Positions 1 to 64,000 of a DNA stretch of 64,000 bases are shown here, one piece after another. Source of the DNA: Alphaproteobacteria bacterium (GTDB lineage Bacteria; Pseudomonadota; Alphaproteobacteria; UBA828); the NCBI GenBank assembly GCA_965214705.1, contig OZ243972.1, positions 2,560,001 through 2,624,000 on the forward strand, written 5' to 3'. A program made the position numbers and the translations under genes. The notes below the pieces were generated by a model. It searched no databases, was not told the origin of the DNA, and worked only from the letters and a program-made list of their open reading frames with translations. How positions within the stretch are numbered: the stretch's first letter is position 1; each line of letters begins with the position of its first letter.

Positions 1-3000
1 GCGCACCGCCCCCCAGAGCGCGCTCCCGCGCGCATCTTCCGCCTCGAACACCGCTTTGCGGGTCGCCACGGTGATGCGGCATTGGCAACTGGCCTGGTCC
101 ATCCTGTAGGGCACCAGCGACTGAATCAGGGCGACGAATTGCGAGACCGCCCGCTCGCCGGTCGGGTCCTCCGGATCCCAGTCGCAGAACACATCGATCG
201 CCTGCACGTCCGTCGCCTGCGGCCACGTCTCGACCTCAAAGATGTCGCCTGACGAGAGGCCGTCGAAGGGGATTGGATAGACCGCAGGATCGTCGAGCAA
301 GGTTGCCCAGGCCCCCGCCAGGCTATCGGGCGCCCCCATCACCCAGCGGGGAGCCGGCAGAGGCGTCTCGCTCCTATCGTCCGTGCGCTTCGGCGGCGCC
401 TGAAGCAGCGTCGCGCGCCGGCCCGTCCTCAGCGCGGTCCAGCCCGCGCCGGGCTCGATGATCGCGCCGTCAGCGTGGGAAACCAGCGCCAATCCACCCG
501 CAACCGCCACCTCCCGCCAGAGCCGCCAGTCCTCTGGCGCAAACGCATCCTCATCGTGGTGGAGGAACAGGACTTCCGCCGCACCGGAGCGCAGCAGGCC
601 GGTATCGAGCGCGGAGGCCTGCCGCTCCGCCGGATCGAGGCAGTCGAAGCGCAGCGCGGCGTCTTGCGCATGGAAGGCGTCAAAGCACGTCCGCGCGCCC
701 TCCTCATCGTCGGCGACGAGCCAGAACTCGCTTTGCGTCTCCTCTCGCGATAGATGGTCGACGCACGTCTGAAGCACCGTCTGCTCAGGCTCCCTGGAGC
801 CTGCGAACTCCAATGCGTGGCAGGCACGCATGGCGGCTCCGGTGTCGTCTGCCCGCTCCAGGGCGGCAAGCAGGGCCGATGGCTCGATCTCGCCCTCGGG
901 CAGCCGGTCTGCGATCGCGGGGCCGTCGGCGACGAACTTCGGCTGCCAGGCGATGCGGTGCTTGCTGTGCGGCAGGTCGACCCGCCTGGGATAAGAGATG
1001 AAGGAGATGTACTTCTCGACGTGAAGGCTGAGCGCACCGGTCGCCTCGTCGTAGAAGTTCAACCGGCCGGAAACCCACTCCCCATTGGGAACATTGTATT
1101 GACCCTTGTCATCGACCTCGTACCGCTTGCCGCCGGGATAGGTCAGTTGGCAAACGAGGCGCGGCACCGTCGGCGCGCCCAGGAACGTCACGTTTTCGGC
1201 CCGCAGGGGAATGGCAAAGCGATCAGCGCCGAGCATCAGGTCGTAAAGAAACGACTGCAACCCGCCGTCGAGGAGGGGCGGAAAGGAGACATATCCCTCT
1301 TCTCTTGCTCCTGCCCATAGCGCCTCGTCGACGCCGACATCCAGCAGGAGGCGGCCGGTCTCCCGCTCACGCCTGAGCTTCCGAATATTCCTGAAGTGGG
1401 GGCCGTACTGGAAGGTTTCCCCGAGAACCACTTCGAAACGCTCGTAGATTTCGTCGTCGGCCGCATACTGAAGAGGTTCGTAGCCCGACGTGTTCAGGTC
1501 CGACAGCGTTTCCGGTGCGTCCAGCTCTGGTCGGGCGCTGATCAAACGCACCCTTCCGCTGCAGTGCAGCTCGCTCTTCGGATCAACCTCGTAAGGCAAC
1601 GTCGAAATCTGGAAGGTGAATTCACCGTCAGAATTGGGAACCGGATAAAGGGCTGTTTGCAGCCTGACAGGCGTCCTCGGGATGGGACAGGGCTGCAGAA
1701 ACTCGAGCACGTCGAAATGGACCGGAACGCCGCCGAGAGCCTGCAATATCAGCTCGATATAGCCGGCGGCGGGCATGATCGGCGCGTGATGGACGCGGTG
1801 TTCCGCCAGCCACGGAAAGGCTGCCTCGGAGAGCCGCGCTTCGAACAGGAGGTGATCGCTCGCGATCCGGTGGCCGACCAGCGGGCCGTGCGCGTAGTCG
1901 CTTTGTTTCAGGAAAAACTCGTCGTCCAGCCTGTCGTCGACGATCTTCTGCTCGTCTCTCGGGTGCCCCGGCAGTAGATGGACGATGGGGTCGGGGCGCG
2001 GATACTGCGCCGCGAAGTCCAGAGACACGCCCGTTTTGAAGAGGTTGCCCAGGGCCTCATGAAAGCCGAGGCAGGTATCGGTGTCCCGCATCAGCGTCGG
2101 AATGGAAACGGGCGGCGATACGGCGTCTTCCACGCACTGCGCGACGATGGGCTGCAGGGCCGAGTGAGGCGCGAGCTCCAGCACCACGTCGGGCCGGTGG
2201 TCGCGCTTGACCGTCTCCATCGCTGCTGCGAAGCGGACCGGATGGCGGATGTTGGACCACCAGTAGGCGCTGTCCAGCCGCGCCGTCTCGGCACCCGTCA
2301 CCGACGAGATGAAGGGCACGTCGGCGTCGAAGTGGAGATCGTTGAGGAAGGAGAGCGCGTCGAAAGCATCGTCGTTGATGGCGTCCATCGCCCGGGAGTG
2401 GAAGGCGATGTTGCCCGGGATCAGCCGGTTCTGGAGGCTGCGCCGGTCCAGTTCCTCGATCACCGGCTGCAGGTCGTCTCCACGACCGCAGATCACCGTG
2501 TTCGCCGGTGCGTTCTCGCAGGCGATCTCGACCTGAATGGGCCGGTCGCCGTCTAGGCGGAAGGGAATGTCCAGCCCGTCCAACAAATCCTCGACGCCCG
2601 GCCGGTCGAGGCCGATCGCCAGCATGCGGCCGGACCCGGCCACGCGCTGCTGCAGGGTGGCACGGTGGTAGACCAGGCGCGTCGCATCGACGAGCGAAAG
2701 CGCGCCGCACGCGTACGCCGCGGCCACCTCGCCGGAGCTGTGTCCCACCACGCAGTCGGGATAGACGCCCCAGGTCTTGAACAATTCCACCAGCGCGCAC
2801 TGAATCATGAAGATAGCGGGCTGGGCGAGTTGAACTTCGTCGAGCGCCGATTGGGGAGCCGTGAAGCAGGCCTCGCGCAACGAAGTGCTCGCGTGCGTGC
2901 GCCAATGCTCGTCGATGGCATCGATGGCGCGGCGGAAGACAGGATGGGCCTCGTAGAGGTCGCGCCCGCAACCGGCCCACTGCGTCCCTTGCCCGGCGAA

Positions 3001-4626
3001 CACCATGACCAGCCGACGCTCGCCCTCCTCCGCCGTGGCGATGGGGGCTTCCTCTTCCACGAAGGTGTCTAGCGCCCCGGTCAGATCGGGCAGACTGCGC
3101 GCCGCGAACGCGGTCCGTGCGGCGAAATGGGTGCGGCGGCGGCTGAGATTGCCGGCCAGCGCGTAGAGGTCCAGCGGCTGCTCGTCGAGCAGGTGGCGCA
3201 ACCGGCGCGCGCTCTCTGTCAGCGCCTTGGGCGTGCGTGCCGAGAGCGGGACCATGAAACCCGCTTGCGGCGCCAGCGGCATCGACCAGAGCCTGGGCAA
3301 TGCCGGCCGGTACTCGCGCACCACGCAGTGGCCGTTGGCGCCGCCGAAGCCGAACGAGTTGATCCCGACGGCCACGGGATGGTCGGGGAACGACTCGCAT
3401 TCCGTCTGCACCTGCATGGGGCAGGAATCGAAGTCGATCTCCGGATTGGGCACCTGGAAGTTGCTCGATGTCGGCGCGAAGGTGCGCCGCTGCATCATCA
3501 GAACGACCTTGAGCAGGGCGCAATGGAAGGCAGCAGCCTCCATGTGTCCCACGTTGCTCTTGACGCTTGACACGCGCAGCGGGACTTCGCGCTCGAAACC
3601 ACCGAAGGCCTCGGCGATGGCGTTGCCCTCAATGGGGTCGCCGACAGCGGTCCCGGTCGCGTGCGCCTCGATGTAGTCGAAGTCGAGAGGAGCGAGGCCG
3701 GCGCGGGCAGAGGCCTCGCGCATCAGCGCCACCTGGCCGTGGTGGGTGGGCGCGCTGATGAAACGGCCGGGCGCGAGGCCGGGAGTGCCGTCAGCCGTCC
3801 CTGCCGCATTGACCGCGGTCGCCTCGATCACGGCGTAGATCGGGTCCCCGTCCCGCTCGGCCGCCGCCAGGGGCTTGATGGCAAAGACGAACGAGCCTTC
3901 GGAGCGCATGTAGCCGTTGGCTTCGGCATCGAAGGAATGGCACTTGCCCTCCGGGCTGATGACCCCCATGAGGTTGAAGCCGCTGCTCATCCTGGCGCTG
4001 CCCAGATAGGTGACGGCGCCGACCAGCGCCTGGTCACAATCGCCGCACGCCAGCGCGTTCATCGCCGCGTGCAGGGCGCTCATGCCGGCGGAGCACGCCG
4101 TGCAATAGGTCGCGGACGATCCCATGAGGTTGAAGTGATAGGAGACCCGATTGGCCAGCATCGCGAGGCTGATGCCGGAGACGGAATTCTCCGTGACGCC
4201 ATGCTGCGGCCGCCAGTTGGACACGGCCGGAACCTGAGAGCCGATGAAGACCCCGGTGGGGCTGTTGCGCAAGGAGTGAAGATCCCAGCCGGCGTGCTCG
4301 ATGGCCTCCCACGCGCAATTCAGCAGCATCCTGACCTGCGGCTCGGTCTGCCGCAGCTCGTTGTGGGACATGCCGAAGAACGCGCGGTCGAAGAGCAACT
4401 CCTCTTCGTCTCGGATCAGCCCCTCGTAAGGGCTCGCGAGGCGCCCCGGGCCCGAGAATTCACCGATGGGCAGATGACCCTTGCCGTAGCGATCGGTGAT
4501 CGGCTCCTGGACGATCTCGCGCTCGGCGAGCAGGCGCCAGAAATCAGAGTCCGAGTGAATGCCGCCGGGCAACCGGTAGCCATACCCGGTGATTGCAACT
4601 CCGTCGCTGATGTCGTAAGCGCCCAT
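1..4626 (-). CDS. Reducing type I polyketide/fatty-acid synthase (KS-AT-DH-linker-KR structural part), truncated at window edge, >=1542 aa
   Basis: Manually translated from ATG at 4626; frame stays open to base 1. KS: YCTACSAG, EAHATGT, VKSNVGHMEAAA, NSFGFGGAN. AT: FAGQGTQW, GHSSG, AFHS. DH: EHRVHHAPIMPAAG, LLDGGLQ. Ends SALWGAVR. Absent from the ORF track because there is no stop in the window. Confidence 0.92.
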   Translation of the reverse strand, partial: MGAYDISDGVAITGYGYRLPGGIHSDSDFWRLLAEREIVQEPITDRYGKGHLPIGEFSGPGRLASPYEGLIRDEEELLFDRAFFGMSHNELRQTEPQVRMLLNCAWEAIEHAGWDLHSLRNSPTGVFIGSQVPAVSNWRPQHGVTENSVSGISLAMLANRVSYHFNLMGSSATYCTACSAGMSALHAAMNALACGDCDQALVGAVTYLGSARMSSGFNLMGVISPEGKCHSFDAEANGYMRSEGSFVFAIKPLAAAERDGDPIYAVIEATAVNAAGTADGTPGLAPGRFISAPTHHGQVALMREASARAGLAPLDFDYIEAHATGTAVGDPIEGNAIAEAFGGFEREVPLRVSSVKSNVGHMEAAAFHCALLKVVLMMQRRTFAPTSSNFQVPNPEIDFDSCPMQVQTECESFPDHPVAVGINSFGFGGANGHCVVREYRPALPRLWSMPLAPQAGFMVPLSARTPKALTESARRLRHLLDEQPLDLYALAGNLSRRRTHFAARTAFAARSLPDLTGALDTFVEEEAPIATAEEGERRLVMVFAGQGTQWAGCGRDLYEAHPVFRRAIDAIDEHWRTHASTSLREACFTAPQSALDEVQLAQPAIFMIQCALVELFKTWGVYPDCVVGHSSGEVAAAYACGALSLVDATRLVYHRATLQQRVAGSGRMLAIGLDRPGVEDLLDGLDIPFRLDGDRPIQVEIACENAPANTVICGRGDDLQPVIEELDRRSLQNRLIPGNIAFHSRAMDAINDDAFDALSFLNDLHFDADVPFISSVTGAETARLDSAYWWSNIRHPVRFAAAMETVKRDHRPDVVLELAPHSALQPIVAQCVEDAVSPPVSIPTLMRDTDTCLGFHEALGNLFKTGVSLDFAAQYPRPDPIVHLLPGHPRDEQKIVDDRLDDEFFLKQSDYAHGPLVGHRIASDHLLFEARLSEAAFPWLAEHRVHHAPIMPAAGYIELILQALGGVPVHFDVLEFLQPCPIPRTPVRLQTALYPVPNSDGEFTFQISTLPYEVDPKSELHCSGRVRLISARPELDAPETLSDLNTSGYEPLQYAADDEIYERFEVVLGETFQYGPHFRNIRKLRRERETGRLLLDVGVDEALWAGAREEGYVSFPPLLDGGLQSFLYDLMLGADRFAIPLRAENVTFLGAPTVPRLVCQLTYPGGKRYEVDDKGQYNVPNGEWVSGRLNFYDEATGALSLHVEKYISFISYPRRVDLPHSKHRIAWQPKFVADGPAIADRLPEGEIEPSALLAALERADDTGAAMRACHALEFAGSREPEQTVLQTCVDHLSREETQSEFWLVADDEEGARTCFDAFHAQDAALRFDCLDPAERQASALDTGLLRSGAAEVLFLHHDEDAFAPEDWRLWREVAVAGGLALVSHADGAIIEPGAGWTALRTGRRATLLQAPPKRTDDRSETPLPAPRWVMGAPDSLAGAWATLLDDPAVYPIPFDGLSSGDIFEVETWPQATDVQAIDVFCDWDPEDPTGERAVSQFVALIQSLVPYRMDQASCQCRITVATRKAVFEAEDARGSALWGAVR

Positions 4627-4964
4627 GCAAACAAGCCCCGATAAACAGCATCATTGACGCAGCACTTGCGTCCATTTCAACACAAGTCGGTAATGCCAAA
4701 TTTCCGACTTGTGTCAGGCAATTGTACCGCGTTCCAGGTCTTTTCGATTGCACCTCCTCGCGCGATTCGAACCCCCATGTTGGAATCGTATAGCCAACAC
4801 CGCCATCAACTCCAATATCGATTTCTTGGTTGTTCCATAAGTATCGCTGATCGCGGACGGGGAGCGCGACCGCGGCTCCCGGCAGTGTCAGGGCACCGAC
4901 AGTCGGCGCTTGTGTGCCCCCGGTCTCCTCCCGTATCACACTCCTGCGTGGCGTGGAGGCGCCC

Positions 4965-6101
<1,137 letters not shown>

Positions 6102-52403: not shown

Positions 52404-53120
52404 GAATTCGACCTCCCTGTGTCATCGCTCAGCATTCAGTCGGAATGCCTGGAGTACTGTCTTCCGATGTATAGCGGTTGCCCCAGCCAAGCCCGCTAGA
52501 CCGAGTTTGCTGGACTACGCCCCGTCATGCGACGCGGCAACGTTTCTGCAAGTCCCCTTGTCCATCACCTTGTTGTTCGGCACGTCGGTTGCGCGTCGAT
52601 CGCGCGATAAGCTATTGAAGTGGCTCGATAATTAGGGGTCACAATTGCACGCCGAGCAACAGACTGGGCGTCCAGCGCCGGCAAAATCATGCCGAATGGA
52701 TCGCGGCCTTCACCGGATGCTCAGAGTGCCAGGCTAACTGGTGGAAGGGTAGCGGGTGAAAGTCCCGCGAAACGAAAGGAGTAGCCAACCACGTTTCTCC
52801 GCGAGCCGTGCATCGTCGGCCGTGAGGCTGGGGGTGAAGCGTCGGTAGCGGTGCATGCGGGCAGGGACAGTGAACGCCGAAAACGAGATGGTCCGAAGTG
52901 CCGAGACGGTTGAGCACGTCGAAGGCAACATCTCCCGCACCGTAATATGGCGAGGTGTGAGGGAGCTTCGCGGCGTCGGGGACCCCATGCACGCATGTAA
53001 GCCCACCACCGGGACCTGGGAGGTCTTCACTCTGCCCCGATGGTCGTATCGGGGCCGCGAAGGGAAGGAGGTATCCGAAGCCTGAGATGAACGGAGTGAA
53101 GAAGTCGGACGGGGCCATAG

Positions 53121-54327: not shown

Positions 54328-56351
54328 GTGTGCTGGGCAGCGCCCAGATCAGGTGGGTTCAAGTCCCACTGGCGCTCGGGTAAGGGGCGCCATATCCAAA
54401 AGTGGGGGTAATTCCTCACTGGCCGGAGTGAGCCGATAAGCGAAACTCTAAACGGGCACGAAGCCGGAAACGGCGGAGACAGCCAAGGGAGGAGCTAAGT
54501 TGGTCCACTGTCGAAAGACAACCGGAAGGCAGGGTGTCCACCGCGAGGTGGAATCTGAAGGGCTTGCGGAGAAGTACCGGGCCGTAATCGAGGGGGCCAC
54601 CCCATGATGAATCGGTCGGCCAAAGACGGGGCAAGGTCGAGCCGGCACTATGGCGGCGAAGGCGTTCTTACCCACCCGTCGCACCAAGGTGTTTGCGAGC
54701 GGCACGGTACGGAAGATCTGGACGTGACCCCAGGAGGGCTCGCCGCGTTCCCGGGTGGCACCGGGATAACGGACCCTATAAGCCGAAAGGCGAAATGGGA
54801 AAGGATGCGCGGCGAGCAATCGGACAACCGAATAGTACCTGAAGCCCGGCGAAAGCCGGGTGACCGCGCGAGCGGCGGCCGTGTGGGCCGGGGAAGTCGG
54901 TTGGCAGAGGTGGTCGGCGAGAGACAGCGATGAGTGAGTAAGGACCATGACGCGGACAAGTTCCTTGAGCGAAAGACCCGGACATCATGGCCCGAGGAGA
55001 CTCATCGACTGGATCAACCCGGCGGGTGACAGGAAGGTCCACTCACTGGTGGACAAGGTGTACAAGCGGAAGAACCTTGAGGTGGCCTGGGAAAAGGTGA
55101 AGCGCAACCGGGGTGCCGGTGGCGTGGACGGAGAGGATTTAGCGGCGTTCGAGGCATCGCTGGATGCAAATCTCGATCGCCTGCACCGGGAGTTGCGGGA
55201 CGGTGAGTATCACCCGCAGCCGGTTCTCCAATGCCTGATCCCCAAGGCGGGCCAGCCGGGGAAGTTCCGCCCGCTCGGCATCCCGACAATCTACGACCGG
55301 GTGTGCCAGCAGGCGCTGCTGAACCGGCTGGAACCGATCTTCGAGCCGGTGTTCGACGATGCCAACTACGGGTACCGGCAAGGAAGGTCTGCCCATGGAG
55401 CGTTACGCAAGATATGGAGGGAACTGGACGAGGGCAACGAGTGGGTTCTCGATGCGGATTTGAAAGACTTTTTCGGGTCCGTGGACCACGAAAAGCTCCT
55501 CGAACTCGTCAACCAGCGAGTCTCGGATGGCCGGGTATTAGGTCTGCTCAGGCAGATGCTCACGGCCGGGGTGGTGGCCGACGGTAAGAGGCTGCCGACC
55601 GAACAGGGCACTCCGCAGGGCGGCATCGTTTCACCGCTGCTCAGCAATATCTTGCTGACCCCGTTCGATTGGGAAATGCGTCGTCGCGGCTATCGACTAA
55701 CGCGATACGCCGATGATTGGCTGATCACGTGCCGCACACGCGGGGAAGCCCGCGCAGCACTGGAGACGGCCAGGCGGATTCTGGCAAAGCTGGGTGTGTC
55801 CCTCAACGCCGGGAAGACCCGCATTGTCCATGTCAGGCACGGGTTTGAGTTCCTCGGCTACAAGATCAAGCAGGGCGAGCGGCCTCTCCGGCTGTCGTCC
55901 TCCAAGATCAAGAGCGGGGTTCGCGGGGGAGCGCGCTACGCGGTTCCGCGTGAGAAATCCATCCGGCACTTCAAGGACCAGATTCGCCAGCGTACCCGGC
56001 GCAAGGCTCCTGTCAGCACGCAGGAGCTGATTGACGAGATCAACCCGATCATTCGGGGATGGGGCCAATACTATTGCAAGGCCCACGTCCGCGGGCTCTT
56101 CCACCAGCTTGACGGCTGGATCGTGCGGCGGCTCTGGTCGCATCGTCGCAAGCGCTGGCGCAACGCTGGCTGGAAACAGTTGCCGGAGCGCAAGCTGATC
56201 GACGAATACGGGCTTGTTCGCCTGATCTCACTGGTTCCGTCCTTGAACCTTCGTTGAGACACCTTTGTGAAAGCGGCTTACGGGAAAACCGTACGGGCCG
56301 TTTGAGCGGCGGACGGAGGCTAGCCTCGCGGGGCGCCTCCTCCGACCCGAC
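54328..56351 (+). mobile_element. Inner group II intron, apparently complete (2024 nt)
   Basis: 5' GTGTG; domain V AAGCGGCTTACGGGAAAACCGTACGGGCCGTTT; domain VI ending CCGACCCGAC; removal restores CCATAGT/ACCGATGAAG. Confidence 0.92.
54947..56257 (+). CDS. ltrA: Group II intron reverse transcriptase/maturase, no endonuclease domain
   Basis: GAGGVDG, RPLGIP...DRVCQ, DADLKDFF, GTPQGGIVSPLLSN, RYADD, FLGY, NPIIRGWGQYY. Confidence 0.95.
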   Translation: MTRTSSLSERPGHHGPRRLIDWINPAGDRKVHSLVDKVYKRKNLEVAWEKVKRNRGAGGVDGEDLAAFEASLDANLDRLHRELRDGEYHPQPVLQCLIPKAGQPGKFRPLGIPTIYDRVCQQALLNRLEPIFEPVFDDANYGYRQGRSAHGALRKIWRELDEGNEWVLDADLKDFFGSVDHEKLLELVNQRVSDGRVLGLLRQMLTAGVVADGKRLPTEQGTPQGGIVSPLLSNILLTPFDWEMRRRGYRLTRYADDWLITCRTRGEARAALETARRILAKLGVSLNAGKTRIVHVRHGFEFLGYKIKQGERPLRLSSSKIKSGVRGGARYAVPREKSIRHFKDQIRQRTRRKAPVSTQELIDEINPIIRGWGQYYCKAHVRGLFHQLDGWIVRRLWSHRRKRWRNAGWKQLPERKLIDEYGLVRLISLVPSLNLR

Positions 56352-58850: not shown

Positions 58851-59650
58851 TGTACCAGCGCCACTTCGCCCTGACCGGCATGCCCTTCGAGACCCCGGCA
58901 CAGACCGACGAGCTGTTCGAATCCTCGGCCCGGCGCGAGGCCGAGGCCAGGCTCGGCCACCTCATCGAGCTCAAGGGCATCGGCCTGCTCACCGGCGAGG
59001 TCGGCGCCGGCAAGACCACCGTCTGCCGCCACCTCACCGACCAGCTCCACCCGGGGCTGTATCGCGTCCATTACGTCTCGCTCACCACCGGCAACGTGCT
59101 CGACACCTACAAGGCCATCGGATGGGAGCTCGGGCTGACCGTCGAGCGATCCCGCTCCTCGGCCCATCACGCGATCAGGACCGAGATCTCCCGCCTCGCC
59201 AAGGAAGCCAGGCAGCTCCCCGTCCTCGTCGTCGACGAGGCCCACCATCTGCGCAACGACGTGTTGGAGGATCTCCGCCTGCTGACCAACTTCGCCATGG
59301 ACTCCGAGAACCGCATGTGCCTCATCCTGGTCGGCCTCACTGAGCTCAGGCGGCGGCTGTCCATGGCGGTGCATGAGTCCCTCAGCCAGCGCCTCGTCGT
59401 GCGGCACCACCTCACCGGCCTCGAACGCGACGAGGTCGACGCCTATCTGACCCACCGCCTCCGGCTCGCCGGATGCGAGCTGCCGCTGTTCGAGGAGGCC
59501 GCCGTCGAGGCCCTGTTCCAGGGCACCCGCGGCCTGCCGCGCCAGATCAACCGCATCGCCCATTACGCGCTGTCGGCCGCCGCCCTCGACAAGGCAAAGA
59601 CCGTCAACGCCAACCACATCCAGACCGCCCTCGACGAGCTTCAGCCATGA
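58850..59650 (+). CDS. ExeA/TniB-like AAA+ ATPase (transposition helper)
   Basis: GEVGAGKT, VVDEAH, LVG, GLPRQIN; TGATG overlap with the transposase. Confidence 0.88.
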   Translation: MYQRHFALTGMPFETPAQTDELFESSARREAEARLGHLIELKGIGLLTGEVGAGKTTVCRHLTDQLHPGLYRVHYVSLTTGNVLDTYKAIGWELGLTVERSRSSAHHAIRTEISRLAKEARQLPVLVVDEAHHLRNDVLEDLRLLTNFAMDSENRMCLILVGLTELRRRLSMAVHESLSQRLVVRHHLTGLERDEVDAYLTHRLRLAGCELPLFEEAAVEALFQGTRGLPRQINRIAHYALSAAALDKAKTVNANHIQTALDELQP

Positions 59651-60714
59651 ACAGCGTCGCCACCGAGGGCATGGCGATGACCGGCTTCCCGACGCGGGCG
59701 CCGATCGAGCTGGAGGACCGGCCGCGCCAGCAGCAGTGGCTCATCGACGGGCTCTGGGGGCGCCAGGCCGTCGGCATCGTCGGCGGCGAGCCGAAGTGCG
59801 GCAAGTCCTTCCTCGCGCTCGACATCGCCGTCGCGGTCGCCGCCGGCGTCCCATGCCTGCGCCGCTTCGCCGCCGACCGGCCGGGCCCGGTCCTGCTGTT
59901 CGCCGCCGAGGACGCCGGGCACATCGTGCGTGCCCGCCTCCAGGGTATCGCGAGCGCCGCCGGCGCCCGCTTCGACGCCCTCGACATCGCGGTCATCGAC
60001 GTGCCCGCGCTGCGCCTCGATCATCGCGCGGACCGTCAGCGCCTGGTGCAAACGGTGGAACGCGTCCGGCCCCGCCTCGTGGTCCTCGACCCCCTGGTCC
60101 GCCTGCACGGCATCGACGAGAACACCGTCGCCGAGGTCGCCCCCATCCTCGGCTTCCTGCGCGACGTCCAGCGCCGCTTCGAGACCGCCGTGCTGCTGGT
60201 CCACCACGCACGAAAGAGCGGCGCCGCCAGGCCGGGCCAGGCCCTGCGCGGAAGCAGCGAGCTGCACGCCTGGGGCGACTCCAATCTGTACCTGCGCCGG
60301 CGAGACAGGCAGATCCTCATGACCGTCGAGCATCGCGCCGCCCCCGGCCTCAACGACATCGAAATCGAGCTCGCCGACGACGGCAAGGGGCCCGCGCTGC
60401 GCCTCCGCCAGGTCGAGACCGGCGATGCCGCGCCGCGGCCCGAAACCCCTGAACGGCGCATCCTCCAGGCCCTCGCCGAAGCCGACGCGCCGCTCTCCCA
60501 GCGCCAGATCCGGGAGCGCGCCGCAACCCGGCACAAGACCGTGGGCGCCATCCTGCGAAAGCTCGTCCGTGAGGGACGCATCCGGCACGACGCCGAGGGA
60601 CATTACAGCCTCGTCACAGGCGAAACCGAGAACGCCGCGCCGGACGACGCCGCCAATGGCAGCCGCCATCCGGACGCCTCGCGGTTCCCGCCTCCCGGTT
60701 CCGCCCATCCCTAG
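59647..60714 (+). CDS. AAA_25 / RepA-like helicase with C-terminal winged helix
   Basis: WLIDGLW, GEPKCGKS, AAED, VVLDPL, LVHH.RK, LRGSS; ATGA overlap with the ATPase. Confidence 0.78.
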   Translation: MNSVATEGMAMTGFPTRAPIELEDRPRQQQWLIDGLWGRQAVGIVGGEPKCGKSFLALDIAVAVAAGVPCLRRFAADRPGPVLLFAAEDAGHIVRARLQGIASAAGARFDALDIAVIDVPALRLDHRADRQRLVQTVERVRPRLVVLDPLVRLHGIDENTVAEVAPILGFLRDVQRRFETAVLLVHHARKSGAARPGQALRGSSELHAWGDSNLYLRRRDRQILMTVEHRAAPGLNDIEIELADDGKGPALRLRQVETGDAAPRPETPERRILQALAEADAPLSQRQIRERAATRHKTVGAILRKLVREGRIRHDAEGHYSLVTGETENAAPDDAANGSRHPDASRFPPPGSAHP

Positions 60715-61515
60715 GAGTTCGAGCGGGAACCGCCCGCCGGAACCGCCCCCCAGGCGCCTCTCGGGCTCAAAAAACGACAATGCGTCGAGCGATCGGCCCG
60801 TGGCCGAAAGCTCCGCTTACGGCCATGGATGCACTTCGTCGGATGGACGGCGGCGGGTCACCCGAAGGGCCGTAGCGAAGCGGAGGAGCCGCGCAGCGGC
60901 TTGACGCGCCGACGGCCGTCCGACACCCCGGCACCCTGTCCCCCTTCCGGCAATGACCGATCAGTCCGGGAAATACGCGCGCCCGTCACCCGAAATAACC
61001 CGGGAAATCCGTCGTCAATCAATCCGGGAAACAACAACGGGCTGGAAGAGCGGCTGCTCGACCTGCACCGGCGCGTGCAGTCCGGGGCGTATCGAGCGCC
61101 GCCGGTCCGGCGGGTAGAGATACCCAAGCCGGACGGCGGGACACGACCGCTCGGCGTTGCCGCGCTGGAGGACAAGATCGTCCAGAAGGCGGTGACGGAG
61201 ATCATCCTGACGCCGATCTACGAGCCGGTCTTCCTCGGCTTCAGCTACGGGTTCCGACCGGGGCGCGGGGCGCATGACGCGCTCGACGCGCTCGCTGTCG
61301 CCATCAATCGGCGGAAGGTCAACTGGGTGGTCGACTGCGACATCCAAAGGTTCTTCGATACCGTTTCGCGGGACTGGCTGGTCCGGTTCCTCAAGCACCG
61401 GATCGGGGACCGGCGGGTGATCAGGCTGATCGTCAAGTGGCTGAAAGCCGGCGTCATGGTCGATGGCCGGTGGCAGGACACCTCGCAGGGCACGCCACAA
61501 GGGGCGATCGTTTCG

Positions 61516-61547
61516 CCGCTGTTATCGGAACGTTCCGATAACAGCGG
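61516..61547. repeat. Perfect 32-bp palindrome at the RT/RIT junction
   Basis: CCGCTGTTATCG-GAACGTTC-CGATAACAGCGG. Confidence 0.95.
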
Positions 61548-61642
61548 ATATGGGAACCTTATGATTCTGGGAACCTGAGCCGCTGCGGGCGTTGATTATC
61601 AAGGGATTGGGCACGGCTCAGGTTCCCATAAGATTGGCGGGT

Positions 61643-62635
61643 TCAGGTGCCTGCAAGCATCGCGAGCACCTCGTCCTGCGCACCCTTGAACACGCCCTTC
61701 CGGAGGCTGGGAGGGCGCCATTTGTCGAGCGTATCCAGCTTGTCGGTGGGATCCGCCTGCAGGTACATCTCGGTGGTCTGAACGCTGGAGTGCCCGAGCC
61801 AGAGTGAGACCTTCCTGACGTCGCCTGTCGCCTCGAGAGTGTGGATCGCGCAAGCGTGCCGCAATAGATGGGGAGATACGGTCTTGCCGGCGATCGACGG
61901 CACGCTGCGCGCAGCGGTTTGCGCATGCAGGACAATCCGTTTGGCGAAGCCGCGCCGGGTCATGCCGGTGCCCATGGCATTGAGGAAGAGATGCCGGTCG
62001 GCACTCTTCGGCCGGATAGCGAGCCAGTCGCGCAGGGCACCGCGGGTTTCCTTCCACAGCGGCAGGATGCGTTCCCGCCGGCCCTTGCCGATGACGTGCA
62101 CCTCGTCGAGGGCCGGCATCTTCAGATCGTCGAGCGCGAGCCCGACCAGCTCCGAGACCCGCAGGCCGGCGTTGTAGGTGAGACACAGCATCGCGCGGTC
62201 CCGTGTTCCAGCCACCGTGCCCGGATCCGGCGCGTCGAGCAGAGCCTGCGTTTCCGCCCGGTCGAGAGAGCCGATGAGGGGCACGTCGCCCTTCTTCACC
62301 GGGATCTCACGCACCTGTGCGGCGAGGTCGAGATATCCCGGGTGCCGGAACTCGAGGAAGCGGAAGAAGGCCTTGATGGCCGCGAGCCGGGCATTGCGTG
62401 TACGCACCCCGTTTTCCCGATCCCGTTCGAGATGTTCGAGGAACTCAAGAAGGGTCGCTATGTCGAGATGACCGATCTCGAGCTTGCAGGGCCGAATGCC
62501 GTGCTTATCCGCCACGAAGACGACCAACAACTTGAAGCACAGGGCATAGCTCTCAACGGTATGCCGGCTCGTGCCCCTGTCGCGTGGAAGATATTCCCGG
62601 AGGAACATCGCAAGGGGAGGAGCGAGTTCAGCCAT
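61643..62635 (-). CDS. Tyrosine recombinase, RitC type
   Basis: RTRNARLAAI, GLRVSE, GKG, HLLRH, LGH, Y; start MAELAPP. Confidence 0.9.
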   Translation of the reverse strand: MAELAPPLAMFLREYLPRDRGTSRHTVESYALCFKLLVVFVADKHGIRPCKLEIGHLDIATLLEFLEHLERDRENGVRTRNARLAAIKAFFRFLEFRHPGYLDLAAQVREIPVKKGDVPLIGSLDRAETQALLDAPDPGTVAGTRDRAMLCLTYNAGLRVSELVGLALDDLKMPALDEVHVIGKGRRERILPLWKETRGALRDWLAIRPKSADRHLFLNAMGTGMTRRGFAKRIVLHAQTAARSVPSIAGKTVSPHLLRHACAIHTLEATGDVRKVSLWLGHSSVQTTEMYLQADPTDKLDTLDKWRPPSLRKGVFKGAQDEVLAMLAGT

Positions 62636-63554
62636 CGTTCTTCCTCCCCTCATGCAGCCGCTCGGTTGCCTGCGATACCTGTCGCAGCAACACAGGCGTC
62701 GCTTCGAGGTACCAGTAGGTGTCGGCGATGTTGGAATGGCCGAGATAGGTCGACAGCGCCAGCATGTGACGGCCGACATCCCGCCGCTCGGCCGAGACCA
62801 TATGTTCGAGCGCGCGAACTGCGAAGCTGTGCCTGAGGTCATGAAGGCGCGGCCCGGGCTCGCCTGGCCCGCCTCGAAGCCCGACCCGCCGTGCCAGCTT
62901 GATGAAGACGGTACAGAGATAGACCGGGTGCATGGGCCGGCCCGTCGAGAGCACGAACAGGTGGTCGTCGGGCCCACCGCGGCGCTTCCTCTCCGCGAGA
63001 TACGTCTCCATGGCCCGATGGACGCTGTCATCCAGCGGGATGAGGCGGCGCTTGCCGAACTTCGCCTTCCTGATCAGCAGGCCATCCACCGTCAGGTCCG
63101 TCAGCAGGAGGCCGGTCGCCTCCGAGCGCCGCAATCCGGTCGCGGCGATCAGCCCCAGGATGTAATGGAACGTCAGGGGCGTGATCGAACCGGCCGGCGG
63201 CAGCTCCAGCGCCGCATCCATGATCAGCCCGATCTCGGTCAATGACAGCAGATGAGGCGATGGCCGCCGTGATACTGCCTTGCCCAGGGCGTCGCGGTCA
63301 GGCACCTCGTGGCGTTCGTCTTCGGCGTGCAGGACGCTGGCAAGATCGCACACGTAGCGCAGCTTGACCTGCGCCTGGCGGGGAGACGGCGTTGTCGATG
63401 CCCAATCGAGGACCGTGCTGCTGCGCACGAAGCTGTCACCATGGGCCTCGGCGTAGGTCGCGTAATCCTGCAGGCACCGCGCCTGTTCCACATAGGCGTG
63501 GCCCAGAGCCCGGCGGAATATAACGTAACGCTCCACATGGTCGGCCAGGGTCAT
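62628..63554 (-). CDS. Tyrosine recombinase, RitB type
   Basis: TGLRRSE, KFGK.R, HDLRHSFA, LSTYLGH...TYWYL. Confidence 0.9.
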   Translation of the reverse strand: MTLADHVERYVIFRRALGHAYVEQARCLQDYATYAEAHGDSFVRSSTVLDWASTTPSPRQAQVKLRYVCDLASVLHAEDERHEVPDRDALGKAVSRRPSPHLLSLTEIGLIMDAALELPPAGSITPLTFHYILGLIAATGLRRSEATGLLLTDLTVDGLLIRKAKFGKRRLIPLDDSVHRAMETYLAERKRRGGPDDHLFVLSTGRPMHPVYLCTVFIKLARRVGLRGGPGEPGPRLHDLRHSFAVRALEHMVSAERRDVGRHMLALSTYLGHSNIADTYWYLEATPVLLRQVSQATERLHEGRKNDG

Positions 63555-64000
63555 CGTGCTTCTCCCGCGTCCGGCCAGGGCTGGGCCACTTCCCGGAGCA
63601 TTCGGACATCGACCCGCGCATAGATCGCCGTTGTCTGCGTGGACTGATGACGCAGCAGGGTGCCGATGACTTCCAGCGGCGTGTTGTCGCGCAGCAGATT
63701 GGTCGCCGCGGAATGCCGGAAGACATGCCCCGCCGGCAGACCCTCAGCCTTGACGCCGGACCGCTTGATCGCAGCCTGCGCGACCGCCGACACACCACCG
63801 CTGGCCAGGGGCTGATGGAGCGGCGGCATCATGCGCAGGAACACTTTCTCGGTATCCACGACAGGTCGGGCACGGAGGATGTAATCCTTGACCGCGGCGC
63901 CGACGTCCTGCGGCAACGGCAAGACCGCGGCGCGGCGCGATTTGCCGCTGACCCGAACGACGGCCTTGTCCCAGTCGATATCGTTCAGCCGAAGATTGGC
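63551..64000 (-). CDS. Tyrosine recombinase, RitA type (C-terminal part only)
   Basis: HVFRHSAAT, LLRHQ..QTTAIYARVD...QPWP. Confidence 0.85.
   Translation of the reverse strand, partial: ANLRLNDIDWDKAVVRVSGKSRRAAVLPLPQDVGAAVKDYILRARPVVDTEKVFLRMMPPLHQPLASGGVSAVAQAAIKRSGVKAEGLPAGHVFRHSAATNLLRDNTPLEVIGTLLRHQSTQTTAIYARVDVRMLREVAQPWPDAGEAR

Follow-up and report, generated by a model that had tools for sequence, protein, structure and literature searches.

A 32-bp palindrome at one end of a RIT element in a group II intron reverse transcriptase gene, a probable recombination site of the element

A RIT element and the palindrome at its junction

We analyzed a stretch of 64,000 nucleotides from an alphaproteobacterial genome (GCA_965214705.1, contig OZ243972.1, positions 2,560,001 to 2,624,000), referred to here as the window, in which a RIT element with three tyrosine recombinase genes interrupts the reverse transcriptase (RT) gene of a group II intron. 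Between the truncated RT gene and the 86-bp terminal inverted repeat (IR) of the element lies a perfect palindrome of 32 bp, which is the main subject of this report and which we think is probably the element's own recombination site. The insertion in the window is called copy A, and the features to which the text refers are the following.

61036-61515, plus strand: 5' fragment of a group II intron-type RT gene, ending ...PQGAIVS; Pfam RVT_1 profile positions 1-129 of 205, E 9.9e-20; left target arm of copy A
61516-61521, plus strand: left-junction hexamer O, CCGCTG, the putative overlap (crossover) hexamer; element-type, the local target being CCCATA
61522-61541: 20-bp centre, TTATCGGAAC followed by GTTCCGATAA, two mirrored half sites resembling recombinase arms, each 8/10 identical to the IR tip ATATGGGAAC
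61542-61547, plus strand: mirror hexamer O', CAGCGG, the reverse complement of CCGCTG, between centre and IR
61546-61631: left terminal IR, 86 bp, 100% identical to the far end at 65156-65241, outside the window
61549-61559 and 61566-61576 (direct) and 61620-61630 (inverted): three GGGAACC sites in the left IR
61643-62635, minus strand: ritC-type tyrosine recombinase, 330 aa; Pfam Phage_integrase (6.9e-29) and a SAM-like domain; HLLRH...Y; 8-nt overlap with ritB
62628-63554, minus strand: ritB-type tyrosine recombinase, 308 aa; Pfam Phage_integrase (5.9e-17); HDLRH...Y; ATGA (4-nt) overlap with ritA
63551-64000, minus strand: 3' part of a ritA-type tyrosine recombinase gene, which continues to about 65107; full open reading frame (ORF) with Pfam Phage_integrase (4.2e-29)
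55634-55639, plus strand: unoccupied target site, TCA CCGCTG CTC AGC, inside an intact group II intron RT gene (54947-56257; Pfam RVT_1 and GIIM)

The junction reads TCG CCG CTG TTA TCG, then GAACGTTC, then CGATAACAGCGG (61513-61547). An initial annotation of this DNA had described it as a perfect palindrome of 12-8-12 layout, which is real; because the 8-bp spacer GAACGTTC is itself palindromic, the whole feature (61516-61547) is one gapless 32-bp palindrome with arms of 16 and 16 bp, placed exactly at the boundary. None of 100 shuffles of the window matched it, even with 3 mismatches allowed. Perfect palindromes of at least 24 bp number 26 in the whole 7.9-Mb genome, and 9 of them, including six of the eight longest, are of the RIT-end type. 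When folded as single-stranded DNA, positions 61506-61640 reach −38.8 kcal/mol (z = −8.5), with 0/200 shuffles as stable. A chance origin of the palindrome is excluded. The direct repeats TGGGAACCT noted earlier near this end are present in two occurrences, at 61551 and 61568, as is the inverted pair said to follow, although its length is 18 nt rather than 14 (61565-61582 with 61614-61631).

The inner 20 bp of the palindrome, TTATCGGAACGTTCCGATAA, are invariant element sequence. In this genome they occur at three RIT junctions and nowhere else, and in a relative from a metagenome-assembled genome (MAG) and six distinct metagenome junctions, described below, they are identical or differ by one centre base. 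Around the left hexamer, the core arms of the element, GTTCCCATAT-CCGCTG-TTATCGGAAC, are inverted and match at 8/10 positions after one is reverse-complemented. The arm had initially been read as a mirror of the last 12 RT-coding bases. Half of that reading stands: the outer CCGCTG is target-type, whereas TTATCG is element sequence that coincidentally encodes Leu-Ser. As a description, "mirror of the target" is thus limited to the outer hexamers and to an evolutionary sense.

Three overlapping recombinase genes, terminal IRs, size, multiple copies, and a palindrome at one end all fit a RIT element, and the insert is one. The earlier identification of the neighboring genes as RIT tyrosine recombinases and of the interrupted ORF as an RT agrees with Pfam (Phage_integrase in all three, RVT_1 in the host). 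A pattern search for HxxR followed by a C-terminal Tyr finds both in RitA (HVFRH...IY), RitB (HDLRH...WY), and RitC (HLLRH...MY). RitA, at 518-526 aa, has one Pfam SAM-like domain at 236-310 and ≈230 residues upstream of it without Pfam assignment; a doubled N-terminal core-binding region of RitA is described in a section of PMC8138268. Rfam returned no RNA family within the RIT region. The insert of copy A measures 3,724 bp and is laid out as target-5', O, 20-bp centre, O', IR, ritC-ritB-ritA, IR, O, target-3'. Its right end, at 65241 (genome position 2,625,241), lies past the end of the window. Reading this far end, as the initial annotation had recommended, gave the IR at 65156-65241, then CCCATA and the 3' half of the RT gene.

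Insertion sites and their empty counterparts

The genome holds three RIT copies: A in the window, B on contig C3, and C at the extreme end of contig C1, where the assembly cuts it. Copies A and B are identical across 3,732 nt except for 3 nt, all within the right-junction hexamer. Each of the three lies in a different RT gene (the B and C host proteins share 42% and 51% aa identity with that of A), and in every one the insertion immediately follows the Ser codon of ...PQGxx(V/I)S-P-x. From the 5' side of the RT gene, each then reads hexamer, TTATCGGAACGTTCCGATAA, CAGCGG, and IR. The centre adjoins the ritC end in A, B, and the MAG copy and the ritA end in C; the interior of the element thus lies in either orientation, with the centre always on the RT 5' side. 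An inversion between the IRs would account for both orientations equally well. Spread of the RIT as cargo of retrohoming introns was considered and is unsupported, the three copies lying in three different introns.

At the end of contig C1 (4169758-4170122), the assembly breaks inside copy C, and the remainder is on no contig. The genome, at 7.9 Mb with 8.7% estimated contamination, compares with 2.8-6.3 Mb in the listed relatives of the same genus (those at the low end being 67 and 62% complete), and its assembly may be mixed or collapsed.

The empty counterpart of copy A is found on contigs of two public sequencing runs (X1 and X2), which join position 61515 to 65240 with 3,724 bp absent; the X1 contig covers 351 nt with 0 mismatches. 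The empty site reads GTT TCG CCC ATA CTG GCG (S-P-I-L-A-N), and the host RT continues from the far side of the insert as CCC ATA CTG GCG AAC. Relatives of the host RT (78-80% aa identity) have S-P-I-L-A-N-V at the insertion site, and the 3' half of the copy A host runs in frame past the far RIT end as ...P ILANVYLHYVLD...RYADDVVVGF, with YADD present. In the occupied site, the left hexamer is CCGCTG and the right is CCCATA, differing at 3/6 positions, and the empty site has a single CCCATA. Because the two junction hexamers differ, there is no target-site duplication in copy A. A reading of CCCATACTG at the right junction as a 3-nt indel relative to CCGCTG was dropped, since CCCATA plus CTG in register fits the empty-site contig. 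We also set aside a joint in run X4 (1487 to 5220, with 8 extra letters), which is not an empty site and belongs to a related intron in another organism. In X2 and X4, which are sponge-metagenome runs, contigs carry RIT sequence at 90-99% likeness over L017 1000-5473.

For copy B, the comparison is with 18 intact sister introns of its family, all reading TCA CCGCTG CTC AGC. Copy B reads TCA-CCGCTG, the 20-bp centre, CAGCGG, IR...IR, and CCGCTG-CTC AGC, in which CCGCTG is a 6-bp direct repeat and the rest of the palindrome is not target sequence. Unoccupied CCGCTG sites in RT genes of this genome number 20, and at least 43 RT gene copies reach the insertion motif.

The host of the insertion is a group II intron, as shown by an RT with a maturase domain, intron RNA domains, and the YADD half. 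Rfam places group-II-D1D4-6 upstream of the copy B host RT. Elsewhere in the window, group II intron RNA domains (Rfam RF02005, 159.6 bits) lie at 52759-52985, near the intact RT-maturase gene at 54947-56257. Another repeat, 2,036 bp long (59001-61036), in turn truncates the copy A intron at 61036; it has two 100% identical counterparts on contig C3 and contains an ORF with an AAA_25 domain (59473-60714). This repeat removes the 5' part of the RIT-hosting intron, and the mobile elements here are nested.

To look beyond this genome, we scanned genome collections with the IR tip and metagenomes with the 20-bp centre. Both search patterns are internal to the element and introduce no bias toward RT flanks. 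The first scan returned three DNA stretches that represent two further junction sets. One, from a genome of the same genus (G007), has a right junction of the type IR, CCGATG CTC TCG AAC GTC (S-P-M-L-S-N-V). The other set comes from an alphaproteobacterial MAG that contains a complete relative at ≈91% identity, with ...TPQGAPIS-CCGCTG-centre-CAGCGG-IR on the left and IR-CCACTG GCC AGT AAC on the right. The metagenome scan returned 32 loci. Eight of them have the GGGAACC-type IR and represent six distinct junctions, and all eight lie after ...PQGxxxS plus a Pro codon. Overall, 11/11 independent insertions of this RIT lineage (A, B, C, G007, the MAG, and the six metagenome junctions) occupy the same RT S-P codons.

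The same 20-bp centre also occurs on low-GC metagenome contigs (L072, L073, L076, L084, L087, L090, L094, L096-L098, and L102), where a stem-loop, a GCTTGCC box, and 4 variable bases precede it. On L096 and L076, it borders RIT trios, identified with Pfam, that have non-RT flanks. On another contig, L075, what follows the far RIT end (≈3.7 kb past the left junction) is a second palindrome of variant sequence, TTACCGGAACGTTCCGGTAA, in place of the RT 3' half, possibly the mark of a tandem or nested RIT.

Junction hexamers and other RIT lineages

The hexamers beside the centre vary, and the centre stays fixed. Across the lineage, the left-junction hexamers are CCGCTG, CCGATG, CCTACA, CCCACG, and CCAATT, and the reverse complements of O' are CCGCTG, CCCACT, CCTACA, CCCTGT, CCTCTC, and CCAATT. 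All have the form CCNNNN, a Pro codon followed by one that is plausible as the next codon of an RT. This variability is expected if a crossover hexamer is swapped with targets, in which case the element would carry hexamers from earlier sites, and the hexamers appear to behave as such an exchanged region. Identity between element and target overlap is absent in copy A (CCGCTG and CCCATA), in the MAG copy (CCGCTG and CCACTG), and in F2a, a copy of the second family described below (ATGCAC and ATGATA). In seven junction pairs that are readable and differ (A, MAG, F2a, F2c, L025, L027, and L028), the left hexamer mirrors O' and the right does not.

A second RIT family in the same genome repeats the design with unrelated sequence. 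Its three copies (one at C1 4085663-4089397) have 90-bp IRs, and the junction reads IR-ATGCAC-GTTATGCCGAG, then CTCGGCATAAC-GTGCAT, a perfect 34-bp palindrome with the motif ATGCCGAG. The end that bears the palindrome is the ritC-side end in one copy (F2a) and the opposite end in another (F2b). Its insertions target the end of a multi-copy YAcAr/SLOG-family gene, within the final codons (...LGIPVMQIKAA*). At the right junction, the hexamers are of target type (ATGATA, and ATGCAG, which an empty relative shares), and the CTCGGCATA motif of the element recurs in the target at 6 nt from the crossover.

We compared 12 RIT lineages with a recognizable IR pair, one of them from another family of the same phylum; four RitB loci without an IR pair (C3 767k, C1 4099k, C2 580k, and C1 1531k) and L054, which has a 683-bp inverted duplication, were left out. 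Nine of the 12 have, directly next to exactly one IR, a clear palindrome of 28-34 bp (at most 2 mismatches), and one more (L024) has an imperfect one there. Additional palindromes of the RIT-end type with the centre GAGCTC, at C1 1526456, C3 2305631, and C2 576217, match the L028 and L025 RITs, which suggests further RIT families or remnants in this genome.

A candidate two-core recombination site and its relation to known systems

We consider it likely that the palindrome is the RIT's own recombination site and that the element integrates conservatively, through tyrosine recombinases, from a joined-end form whose junction is palindromic and contains two cores. Joining of the element ends would create IR-O-centre-O'-IR, a perfect palindrome of ≈200 bp in which two core sites, GTTCCCATAT-CCGCTG-TTATCGGAAC and its reverse complement, would abut as mirror images, flanked by IRs that each hold three more GGGAACC sites. 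In such a joined, probably circular intermediate, RitA, RitB, and RitC would exchange strands with the target across the 6-bp O, with a 6-bp stagger, just after the Ser codon of ...PQGxxxS-P-x, and the target would be recognized through protein contacts with arm-like sequence. Since the junction is symmetric, either core would be usable, and the interior would enter in either orientation with the centre on the RT 5' side. Hexamer identity would be dispensable, mismatched hexamers would segregate, and the element would pick up and carry the hexamers of earlier sites. The refutation offered with the initial annotation concerned a free RIT end that already holds the whole palindrome; this is probably the case here.

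Several observations weigh against this reading. Our data are assembled contigs, which are unable to reveal a joined-end or circular junction, and none was observed. The abutting palindrome is absent in two of the 12 lineages (L057 and L058), and 19 of the 32 metagenome loci were not resolved. The L073 and L084 contigs show no RIT; there the centre neighbors transposase genes of the IS91 and IS3 types, and in those lineages it might belong to the target, not the element. The pattern in which the left hexamer mirrors O' fails in copy C, L056, the RIT at C1 ≈4.092 Mb, L074, L078, and L079; L056 and the RIT at C1 ≈4.092 Mb have an opposite or mixed pattern. Both patterns would fit a staggered exchange with a mismatched overlap after replication, and because neither is universal, we infer the stagger and its resolution. 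The left hexamer of copy C is one base off the mirror (A for C). The closest intact relative of its host (97% aa identity) has CCGCTG, and other relatives have CCGATG; the base may be target-type or a later mutation, the latter adding to the points on this side. The target right arm CTC TCG AAC GT resembles the element's TTA TCG GAA CGT (TCGAAC compared with TCGGAAC), but this likeness requires a 1-nt shift, is weak for copy B, and serves as a lead only. A search for element-like arms in the target left arm gave nothing convincing.

Other accounts of the junction differ in how they fare against the same evidence. The mobile form could instead be a folded single strand or a hairpin-ended molecule, with a folded site like integron attC, which would leave the same junction anatomy. 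The strong single-strand fold (−38.8 kcal/mol) and the internal 18-nt inverted pair in each IR speak for this account, as does the portion of Nielsen et al. (2017, PMC5737581) that reports exonuclease-protected RIT DNA without circle-junction reads and proposes hairpin intermediates. A perfect palindrome of ≈200 bp at a circle junction, however, would itself defeat short-read mapping and is a possible reason why short reads missed circle junctions in that mobilome study, which makes the negative non-discriminating. Both orientations and the exchange of hexamers are explicable without folding, a strand bias is not indicated by the present data, and we regard a folded intermediate as unlikely. 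A function unrelated to transposition, such as a ritC terminator or a chance structure, is scarcely credible: the palindrome is a stable hairpin 96 bp downstream of the ritC stop codon, but it lies at the ritA end in copy C and F2b and exactly at the insertion boundary in all copies, and chance is excluded.

The initial annotation had proposed two explanations of its own. In one, specificity resides in the 12-nt arm, which acts like a guide by matching the RT target and could be exchanged to retarget the element. The comparison of RIT copies at different sites that it called for did find the arm constant and the targets similar, all of them RT genes; CCGCTG supplies Pro-Leu codons in many RT genes, among them the 20 unoccupied sites here, and element TTATCGGAACGT resembles target ...TCGAACGT. 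A natural RT with CCG CTA TTA TCG AAC GTT also exists. A guide nevertheless appears improbable, given that copy A integrated at CCCATA with 3/6 mismatches, that one 20-bp centre accompanies six different hexamers among related elements, that the same centre occurs in unrelated RT genes and in low-GC RITs with non-RT flanks, that 20 perfect CCGCTG sites are still empty, and that an RNA or other pairing device is not evident. In the other proposal, local target sequence is copied into the element end through a hairpin at each integration, and the palindrome is made anew. Part of this survives, in that the hexamers on both sides of the centre are of target type (CCNNNN) and vary from element to element, and target sequence does enter the end. 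Copying from the local site is ruled out because the left CCGCTG of copy A differs from the local CCCATA at 3/6 positions. The inner 20 bp, moreover, are absent from the 18 intact B-type introns and the X1 and X2 contigs and identical across insertions into different introns, and an overlap strand exchange accounts for the hexamers without hairpin synthesis. We hold hairpin copying to be very improbable.

The RT sequence just cited comes from L064 (G020:C2), an RT of the copy C host family, and stands at the RIT site with rare Leu codons. Its codons are the same as the element arm TTATCG, and they could be an excision footprint, an arm-like target choice, or a coincidence.

Returning to the conservative two-core reading, a broader extension of it is tentative, and we would sooner doubt than assert it. 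The RIT family as a whole would move via a ≈200-bp palindromic two-core junction capable of forming a cruciform, a ready four-way junction, and the hexamers would be a swappable record of past targets. The lineage studied here would be a parasite dedicated to group II introns, one that recognizes the DNA of the most conserved RT motif and maybe leaves silent footprints in RT genes. Independently of this extension, the insertions described above show one mobile element specialized on the most conserved codons of another, a choice that provides dozens of safe, multi-copy landing sites per genome. RIT elements are widespread, and natural before/after pairs make their movement and target choice directly testable, with the exact ends, a target of ≈30 bp, a mismatch-tolerant 6-bp crossover, and a predicted palindromic junction defined so far.

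The element resembles known RIT elements in its three overlapping recombinase genes (4- and 8-nt overlaps), its ≈3.5-3.7-kb length, terminal IRs, identical copies, and insertion into genes of other mobile elements. Van Houdt et al. (2012, PMC3414803) describe an "overlapping palindromic sequence" next to one end as well as "sequence variation at the ends", both unexplained there and without fit to known site layouts. According to parts of that paper and of the CH34 genome paper (PMC2864759), RITs occur in radC of integrative and conjugative elements (ICEs) and in IS66 and Tn6049 transposase genes. RIT movement is described in sections of PMC3414803 and PMC10214605 as never demonstrated experimentally, and a 2023 comparison table in the latter gives RIT target specificity as "not tested". 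Unlike in earlier accounts, the ends, empty sites, crossover hexamer, and RT S-P-x target are defined here from natural before/after pairs. In a full-text literature search, with the paper of Ricker et al. (2013) and supplementary tables, including those of Van Houdt et al. (2012), outside its scope, we found no link of RITs to group II intron RT genes and no two-core palindromic junction.

A crossover of ≈6 bp that tolerates mismatch, with flanking bases that travel with the excised form, is shared with Tn916/CTnDOT, strand-biased circularizing elements (SEs), and GInts. In behavior, the RIT comes nearest to systems that accept mismatched overlaps: Tn916/CTnDOT, the SEs, and Tn554. The integrases of Tn916 and CTnDOT type act on coupling, or overlap, sequences and tolerate mismatched overlaps. 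For SEs, a section of PMC10214605 reports circles that carry 6 bp of the left flank. Unlike what we propose for the RIT, these systems are not known to have a perfectly palindromic joined end with two mirrored crossovers; they have other gene sets, and the ICEs among them carry large cargo. Tn554, with TnpA, TnpB, and TnpC, is site-specific, is not known to duplicate its target, and has asymmetric junctions with a 6-7-bp junction sequence from the previous site. The RIT is like it in the absence of target duplication in copy A, in asymmetric junctions, in the use of several recombinase-family proteins, and in carried-over junction sequence. To our knowledge, Tn554 has neither long terminal IRs nor a palindromic double core. 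Rit proteins form subgroups apart from TnpA, as set out in part of PMC8138268.

The classical attP/attB systems of phages and ICEs offer a further comparison. A lambda-type layout of arm sites was not recognized in the RIT. Both nonetheless have inverted core-type arms around a short overlap, a product site in which element stands beside target, and conserved target genes. Unlike the classical systems, the RIT needs no core identity, as the 3/6 mismatch in copy A illustrates, and it integrates in either orientation.

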